Source: Naegleria gruberi
Lineage: Eukaryota
DNA: 64,000 bases
NCBI GenBank assembly: GCA_000004985.1
Contig: GG738902.1
Strand: one strand, 5' to 3'
Below the pieces are notes generated by a model. It ran no database searches. It was given only the letters and a program-made list of their open reading frames with translations, and was not told the DNA's origin. A program made the translations under genes and the position numbers. Shown here piece by piece: positions 41,730-42,665 of the stretch (positions are counted from its first letter, which is position 1; each line of letters opens with the position of its first letter).

Positions 41730-42665
41730 ATGTCAGCACAACAATCACACAGTGGCCCTGTTCAACTATTTTTGGATTTGGATCTTTCCTCTCCATTGCT
41801 TATTCATCAATTACGTGATGTTCCCTCTTCATTAAAATATCATGTCATTATGCTTCCGATAAATAATGCATTTCAGTTGACCATAGATCAATACAGTGGA
41901 TATGAAATAGATCATGGAATTTTATTTTCTGATTTTAGTGATGATGATTATGGAAAATTTGCACATTTAATTTCTAAAAGAGATTTACGATATATTTCTA
42001 AACAAATTATGAAATTAAATAATTACGAGTTACTTGTTTCGATTGCTGTCAAATTGAATTTGTGGAATGAAAAGAAATTTGTCTTGTGAGCTGTTAAAAA
42101 ATTTGGATTTTCTCTCAGTTTTGCCTCAATAAATTTGCAAAATGATAGAGAAGTGGTCATGGCTGCAATTGACCAAAATGGATATGCCATTCAGTACGCA
42201 TCTGAAGAAATTAGAAATGATAGGGAGATTGTTAAAAGATCCATTTCAAGAGCTGGATGTGCACTTCGATATATTGCCGAGGAATTGAAACAAGATAGAG
42301 AGATAGTGATGGAAGCTGTTAATGAAAATGCAATGGCTCTTGCAGACGTATGTAATTATTTTGGAAATGATAGAGAAATAGTATCATTGGCTGTTAATAC
42401 TGATGGAAATATTATTAGATTTGCAAGTCCTGAATTGAGAAACGATAAGGAAATTGCAATGCAAGCTCTTAAGAAAAAAGGAATGTCCATTAAATACCTG
42501 TCAGAAAATTTGAGAAATGATAAGGAAGTTGCTATGCAAGCTCTTCAAAGTTGTGGTATAACAGGAAGGAGTTTTGGATTGTACATACATACAAAAGAAT
42601 CACCATTAGATTATTTATCTGAAAGTGTTAGAAATGAAATTGAATACGAAATGAACATGAGATAA
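41730..42665 (+). CDS. DUF4116-type repeat protein; two ORFs in one frame separated by a single in-frame TGA (42087..42089)
   Basis: ORFs 41730..42089 and 42135..42665 share a frame. 25-aa repeats (xEVVMAAIDQNGYAIQYASEEIRND...) continue uninterrupted across the TGA (..KKFVL*AVKKFGFSLSFASINLQNDREVV..). This is either a disrupted gene, stop-codon readthrough, or a sequencing error. Confidence 0.5.

Follow-up and report, generated by a model that had tools for sequence, protein, structure and literature searches.

A probable young nonsense change in one of two DUF4116-repeat paralogs of Naegleria gruberi

One of the two paralogous DUF4116-repeat genes of Naegleria gruberi carries a single in-frame TGA codon (42087..42089, + strand) in the NEG-M reference, and we judge it probable, at roughly 65%, that this codon is a real nonsense allele (i.e., that the locus is a young pseudogene or a null allele) rather than a recoding device. 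On this account, a single-base substitution would have turned a sense codon into TGA in one member of the pair, such that translation would end after 119 residues, midway along the long helix of the second repeat unit, and what remains would be a stub (annotated as NAEGRDRAFT_73055) followed by an intact, unannotated tail of 191 codons. The change would be very recent, or else the site would be heterozygous in a diploid amoeba, with TGA as one of its alleles. We infer both that the T is truly present in the DNA, as opposed to being a base-call error, and that the stub is non-functional.

A lone stop in an otherwise open frame

The initial annotation had placed the ORFs at 41730..42089 and 42135..42665 in the same frame, and a check of starts and stops agrees: The ATG at 41730 (the first start past an in-frame TAA at 41688), the TGA at 42087..42089 and the TAA at 42663..42665 all belong to one frame. 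The features of the locus, in which an asterisk marks the stop, are:

41730..42086, + strand: upstream ORF of 119 codons, from an ORF scan; tblastn gives 100% identity over 119 aa to NAEGRDRAFT_73055
42087..42089, + strand: in-frame TGA, at position 8 of a 25-residue repeat unit; Lys in the paralog P0198
42090..42665, + strand: downstream open frame of 191 codons plus TAA, with 6.7 DUF4116 units and a C-terminal tail
42018..42590, + strand: DUF4116 repeat array, spanning the TGA (residues 97-112 a partial unit, then residues 113-287)
42086..42118, + strand: candidate 33-nt micro-intron, GTGAGC...CTCTCAG, encoding L*AVKKFGFSLS; rejected
42162..42164, + strand: first in-frame ATG past the TGA, the sole start for an independent or re-initiated 167-aa tail

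The lone TGA is flanked by open segments of 132 and 191 codons, the upstream ORF comprising a module specific to the family at its N terminus (residues 2-61), followed by an acidic linker and by the first 1.3 DUF4116 units. At the local base composition, 191 open codons would arise by chance with a probability of about 6e-6, and the codon-usage log-odds in the shared frame are 0.33 for the upstream ORF and 0.46 for the tail, where long ORFs score 0.40+/-0.12 and shifted off-frames score -0.16+/-0.09. This combination of an improbable open run and codon usage of the coding type indicates that the interrupted frame is real and did not arise by chance. Further signs of decay (i.e., extra stops, frameshifts or loss of codon bias) were found in neither half, leaving the TGA as the single lesion, and a search for DNA-level tandem repeats or a recent internal duplication returned none. 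When open frames of at least 90 codons each are paired across one stop within the same frame, no other pair in the window (by which we mean the whole 64-kb stretch of DNA that was analyzed) has TGA as that stop.

The window has 32.5% G+C and is dense with long ORFs that follow the standard code. It contains 38 open frames of at least 150 codons, 35 of which end in TAA, three in TAG and none in TGA; over all frames, TGA makes up 41% of the stop triplets and is as frequent as TAA, and at least three of the TAA ends are TAA triplets situated inside GTAAGT splice donors. Because none of these 38 frames ends in TGA, the TGA at 42087..42089 is not a designed gene end. N. gruberi seems to avoid UGA as a natural stop.

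Repeat register and the uninterrupted paralog

When the two segments are joined across the TGA, the product matches the Pfam DUF4116 profile (PF13475) in four stretches with E=4.9e-61 and 202.5 bits (gathering cut-off 24.9). Delimiting the repeat units at their N-D-[RK]-E anchors yields first a partial unit of 16 aa, at residue 97, and then seven units of exactly 25 aa each, starting at residues 113, 138, 163, 188, 213, 238 and 263. In the earliest of the full units (NEKKFVL*AVKKFGFSLSFASINLQ) the TGA takes the place of residue 8, and the units stay in register on either side of it, which bears out the earlier observation that a 25-residue periodicity continues through the stop. The accompanying claim, that the stop falls on a conserved small-residue (Ala) position, does not hold. 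Position 8 is variable, both in the other units of the joined product (A, R, E, L, Q, Q) and over 178 repeats from 74 homologs (A 40%, T 21%, E 20%); the conserved small residue is at position 9 (A, A, S, A, A, A, A), the intact GCT codon of which comes right after the TGA.

An AlphaFold model of the tail alone (pLDDT 94.8, pTM 0.88) predicts with high confidence that it is an alpha-solenoid, each unit of which consists of a 10-residue, a 6-residue and a 4-residue helix, and DUF4116 has been modelled as an alpha-solenoid by others (PMC8078820). By register with this model, the stop sits within the 10-residue long helix (KKFVL*AVKK), so that there is no domain boundary either where the stub ends or where the tail begins. 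The ATG at 42162 lies 25 codons past the TGA, again inside a helix, in unit 3. A Foldseek search of the PDB with the tail model returned no significant match among solved structures (best E=0.07), the top non-significant matches being designed helical repeats and importin-like proteins. The strong profile match, the 25-residue period and the predicted alpha-solenoid are all shared with other Pfam DUF4116 (PF13475) proteins; unlike them, the present gene has an N-terminal module that is found in only two N. gruberi proteins.

The second of these two proteins came to light when 1.84 billion cluster representatives were searched exhaustively by HMMER with the 119-aa query; the search recovered the query itself, one chance-level match and one true relative. 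This sole relative of the N-terminal module is N. gruberi NAEGRDRAFT_67432 (XP_002677424.1, P0198), a 461-aa DUF4116 protein (E=1.5e-66) encoded on a different scaffold. Residues 2-61 of the upstream ORF align to its residues 19-77, and the joined product aligns to it colinearly over residues 2 to 274 (BLASTP 4e-40, 31% identical). The two have in common an N-terminal box (GPVQLFLDLDLSSPLLIHQLRDVPSSLKYHVIMLPI in the joined product vs. GPVIISLDIHHKSKLLPIRIQDVPQALKIEMIMKPI in the paralog) and the region of the junction (RDLRYISKQIMKLNNYELLVSIAVKLNLWNEKKFVL*AVKKFG vs. RDEKFIIQEILKLKDENKLIRIAKVLNLWENKQFVLKAVENWK). The paralog is one uninterrupted ORF that has FVLKAV where the joined product has FVLXAV, reading ...LNLWENKQFVLKAVENW... 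in place of the ...LNLWNEKKFVL*AVKKF... of the interrupted gene. In that this colinear paralog has Lys at the site, the stop replaces a sense codon. The two genes are alike in the order of their parts, i.e., the box GPV..L..DVP..LK..IM.P, an acidic linker, '..LNLW..K.FVL.AV..' and then DUF4116 units, and they differ in that the paralog is uninterrupted, with Lys at the TGA site, contains more units and a more extended acidic linker, and shares only 31% identity. On the simplest reading of these alignments, the locus would be one gene of a two-member family specific to N. gruberi.

In the public annotation of N. gruberi the gene is terminated at TGA 42087..42089. The upstream ORF is identical to NAEGRDRAFT_73055 / XP_002671798.1 (P0197), a 119-aa 'predicted protein' of strain NEG-M on a 305,921-bp scaffold, and the 191-codon tail is unannotated and absent from a collection of 15 billion proteins. 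Independent products of the tail, whether from a TTG start or the 167-aa product from ATG 42162, are likewise not on record. A word-index protein search with the joined product gave repeat-level matches only, at no more than 43% identity. This search also missed the 100%-identical 119-aa entry and the 461-aa paralog, both of which are in the same collection; as such, its negatives are weak. The initial annotation had called for a comparison of orthologs at the interrupted codon, and this was answered in part: The paralog supplies a Lys, and no ortholog covering the codon turned up in the protein collections or in a metagenome scan, which recovered loci related at the level of the repeats only.

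These comparisons show a single ancestral gene and support its interruption by one point change, the premature stop standing where an intact homolog of the same architecture has a sense codon. The ancestral codon was most likely AGA (Arg), or possibly another one-step neighbor of TGA, such as TTA, TCA or GGA; all four are common in the codon usage of this genome. Some features point the other way. Apart from its one lesion the frame is a perfect 310 codons in which nothing independently signals decay, the paralog's Lys codon (AAA/AAG) is two steps removed from TGA, and the paralog is just 31% identical. Given that a second lesion is lacking and that codon usage is unimpaired, the change must be very young, heterozygous or an error of the Sanger consensus. 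Since Naegleria is described as being for the most part a heterozygous diploid (PMC9928731), a heterozygous nonsense allele is plausible.

The locus resembles young nonsense pseudogenes and segregating null alleles in having a single premature stop, an intact frame and an intact paralog, and in belonging to a lineage-restricted repeat family that is not conserved; it differs from young nonsense pseudogenes in having no further lesions, so that the label rests on one codon. The finding itself is an ordinary one, being a lesion in a lineage-specific repeat family, and its value lies mainly in annotation. NAEGRDRAFT_73055 would be the truncated head of a DUF4116 solenoid gene, and its annotation needs to be flagged as interrupted, or to be corrected if the stop proves to be an assembly error. 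Four explanations of the TGA had been put forward in the initial annotation, and their fates differ: The recent nonsense change gains support from the intact colinear paralog, the micro-intron has the evidence against it, and programmed readthrough shows no positive signal. The fourth, a base-call error, is weighed first below.

Competing explanations of the TGA

An error of base calling or of the consensus in the NEG-M Sanger assembly, with the true gene encoding an intact 311-aa DUF4116 protein, is unlikely. An error of this kind is favored by there being only one lesion, by both halves being open and coding-like, and by the stub being recorded on the reference scaffold only (one contig, in a one-member cluster). 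However, all the other long genes in the window are uninterrupted, including those for ISWI (1150 aa), the first exon of PDS5 (1011 aa) and an ABC transporter (675 aa), from which the local quality of the sequence looks good. In addition, at a Sanger depth of about 8x a substitution error in the consensus is a rarer event than is a segregating nonsense allele in a heterozygous diploid. Eight intact 311-aa variants, which differ in the residue at the site (R, G, L, S, W, C, K or Q), are all absent from the collection of 15 billion proteins; this counts only weakly against an error, as the collection does not seem to index a second N. gruberi data set.

Functional readthrough of the UGA by a near-cognate tRNA, by which the full-length solenoid would still be made, is improbable. 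Such readthrough would suit the fully intact tail frame with its strong DUF4116 signal and the absence of TGA from the ends of the 38 long open frames, but a recent mutation equally predicts an intact tail. Stop contexts known to be leaky in other eukaryotes are UGA-C and CUAG, whereas the context here is UGA-GCU-GUU, with G at +4, and the downstream 114 nt fold no better than shuffled sequences (z = -0.48); thus neither a leaky context nor a stimulatory downstream structure was found at 42087..42089. Moreover, the stop is not conserved, the sole relative having an ordinary sense codon, and about 12,500 codons of long ORFs contain no other in-frame TGA. In genes with programmed UGA readthrough (the UGA-CUAG class in animals and viral leaky stops), an in-frame UGA is similarly followed by a long protein-like frame; the present gene departs from them in lacking a leaky +4 base, a structure and a stop conserved in its relative, and in that its stop lies inside a repeat helix and not before an extension domain.

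A related scenario, and one to which we attach slightly less credence still, is that UGA is a weak terminator in N. gruberi, in which case the stop could be tolerated or leaky, yielding both the 119-aa stub and the full-length solenoid. The TGA codon at 42087..42089 offers a concrete case for examining the efficiency of termination at UGA in Naegleria. Reassignment of TGA as a sense codon was considered separately and rejected: The long ORFs, which total about 12,500 codons, contain no in-frame TGA and gain hardly any length when TGA is read as sense.

It is very improbable that the two segments are truly separate genes whose in-frame boundary arose by chance. The public annotation recognizes only the 119-aa ORF, and the window contains another same-frame ORF pair with a single stop, at 53837, both of which could be taken to favor separate genes. 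Against this, the repeat array begins at residue 97, before the stop, and continues in register after it; the boundary would fall within a helix (by the tail model), and the tail offers no ATG until 25 codons past the stop, within unit 3. The paralog consists of a single ORF, and TGA is never the native terminator among the 38 long open frames.

The other same-frame pair (52163..55195, + strand; stop at 53837..53839) is the only additional one in the window with at least 90 codons on each side of a single stop. In it, a Kelch-repeat ORF of 558 aa precedes an ORF of 450 aa whose F-box-like match is weak, the two being parted by TAA, one AAA codon and then ATG (..AAAAAATAAAAAATGAAA..), and the pair may represent two genes with 3 nt between them or else a single gene that is interrupted or fused. 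Next comes a BTB ORF, at 55245..56261.

Removal of the TGA by splicing is more doubtful again. The 33-nt segment that had been proposed as a possible intron, GTGAGC...CTCTCAG, is indeed present at 42086..42118, with GT..AG ends, a length that is a multiple of 3 and a pyrimidine-rich 3' end. Very short introns are not out of place in this setting, in that the local candidates are themselves only 41-54 nt (in line with the earlier statement that verifiable introns here have 39 nt or more) and a minimum intron length of 30 bp was set in a study of N. fowleri (PMC8296547). The best local candidate introns are:

19546..19589, + strand: candidate intron, GTAAGT or GTATGT donor
27306..27346, + strand: candidate intron, GTAAGT or GTATGT donor
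39000..39042, + strand: candidate intron, GTAAGT or GTATGT donor
40092..40138, + strand: candidate intron in a kinase gene, its junction backed by the paralogous kinase P0196
7710..7657, - strand: candidate intron, GTAAGT or GTATGT donor

The use of the 33-nt segment as an intron is nevertheless not supported. Its excision would drop L*AVKKFGFSLS (the end of the long helix and the second helix), leaving a unit of 14 residues and breaking the 25-residue register. The 11 codons involved specify core residues of the repeat that align to the paralog, so that excision would open an 11-residue gap in the alignment, and the codon usage of the segment is coding-like (0.35). The GTGAGC donor exists only because the TGA is present, and both this donor and the length of 33 nt are unlike those of all five local candidates, which have GTAAGT or GTATGT donors and 41-54 nt. 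No CTAAY-like branch motif occurs within the 33 nt, and the protein collection lacks the 300-aa product that splicing would give. As for other ways of splicing around the stop, all 44 in-frame GT..AG combinations that span the TGA were tried and rejected; each deletes sequence that aligns to the paralog, and none restores the 25-residue register.

Incorporation of selenocysteine at the TGA is a negligible prospect. N. gruberi has Sec machinery that includes SPS2, according to da Silva et al. 2013 as cited in PMC4561486, but an Rfam scan of 41000..44000 on both strands (E<=10) returned a 5S rRNA only and no SECIS, the 3' UTR can be no longer than about 400 nt because the convergent V-ATPase subunit c gene ends at 43080, and the site is a variable, solvent-type repeat position with no redox motif, occupied by Lys in the paralog and by Cys in only 3 of 178 homologous repeats (1.7%). 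The fold of the 3' UTR is unremarkable (z=-1.5). Like eukaryotic selenoprotein genes, the locus has a UGA in frame and belongs to an organism equipped with Sec machinery; unlike them, it has neither a SECIS nor a Cys-containing homologous position, and it lacks a redox context.

Gene models and other features of the window

For the protein kinase gene that neighbors the DUF4116 gene (L001; 38407..40512, + strand) there is a paralog, P0196, on a different N. gruberi scaffold, with 85% identity. The candidate intron of the neighboring gene at 40092..40138 contains TACTAAT and seemingly has an AAG acceptor. A further relative of this kinase, 79% identical, comes from an ENA metagenome (ERZ929261; contig of 1.3 kb) and indicates that an N. 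gruberi-like amoeba was in the sample.

The public model of the ISWI gene (P0075) removes an in-frame 147-nt 'intron' (12547..12693, + strand; GTCATT...GCAAAG) from an uninterrupted ORF of 1150 codons, and begins 32 codons past the first ATG of that ORF. The ORF and P0075 are identical at 1069 of 1069 aligned residues, the apparent '95%' being due to a 49-residue gap that stems from the predicted intron. This 147-nt 'intron' is probably an artefact of the gene model.

A complete 5S rRNA gene (41272..41390, - strand; Rfam RF00001, 105 bits, E=2e-23) is located between the kinase gene and the DUF4116 gene, 340 nt upstream of the ATG of the latter. It is solitary and represents the sole match to an Rfam family in the 64-kb window, which contains no tRNA genes. 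On the other side of the DUF4116 gene, in the spacer of about 400 nt that separates it from the convergent V-ATPase subunit c gene, there is a hairpin at about 42768..42820 (+ strand; AACTCAAATTGGTGC...GCACGAACTTGAGTT, then T8), with a fold z of only -1.5.
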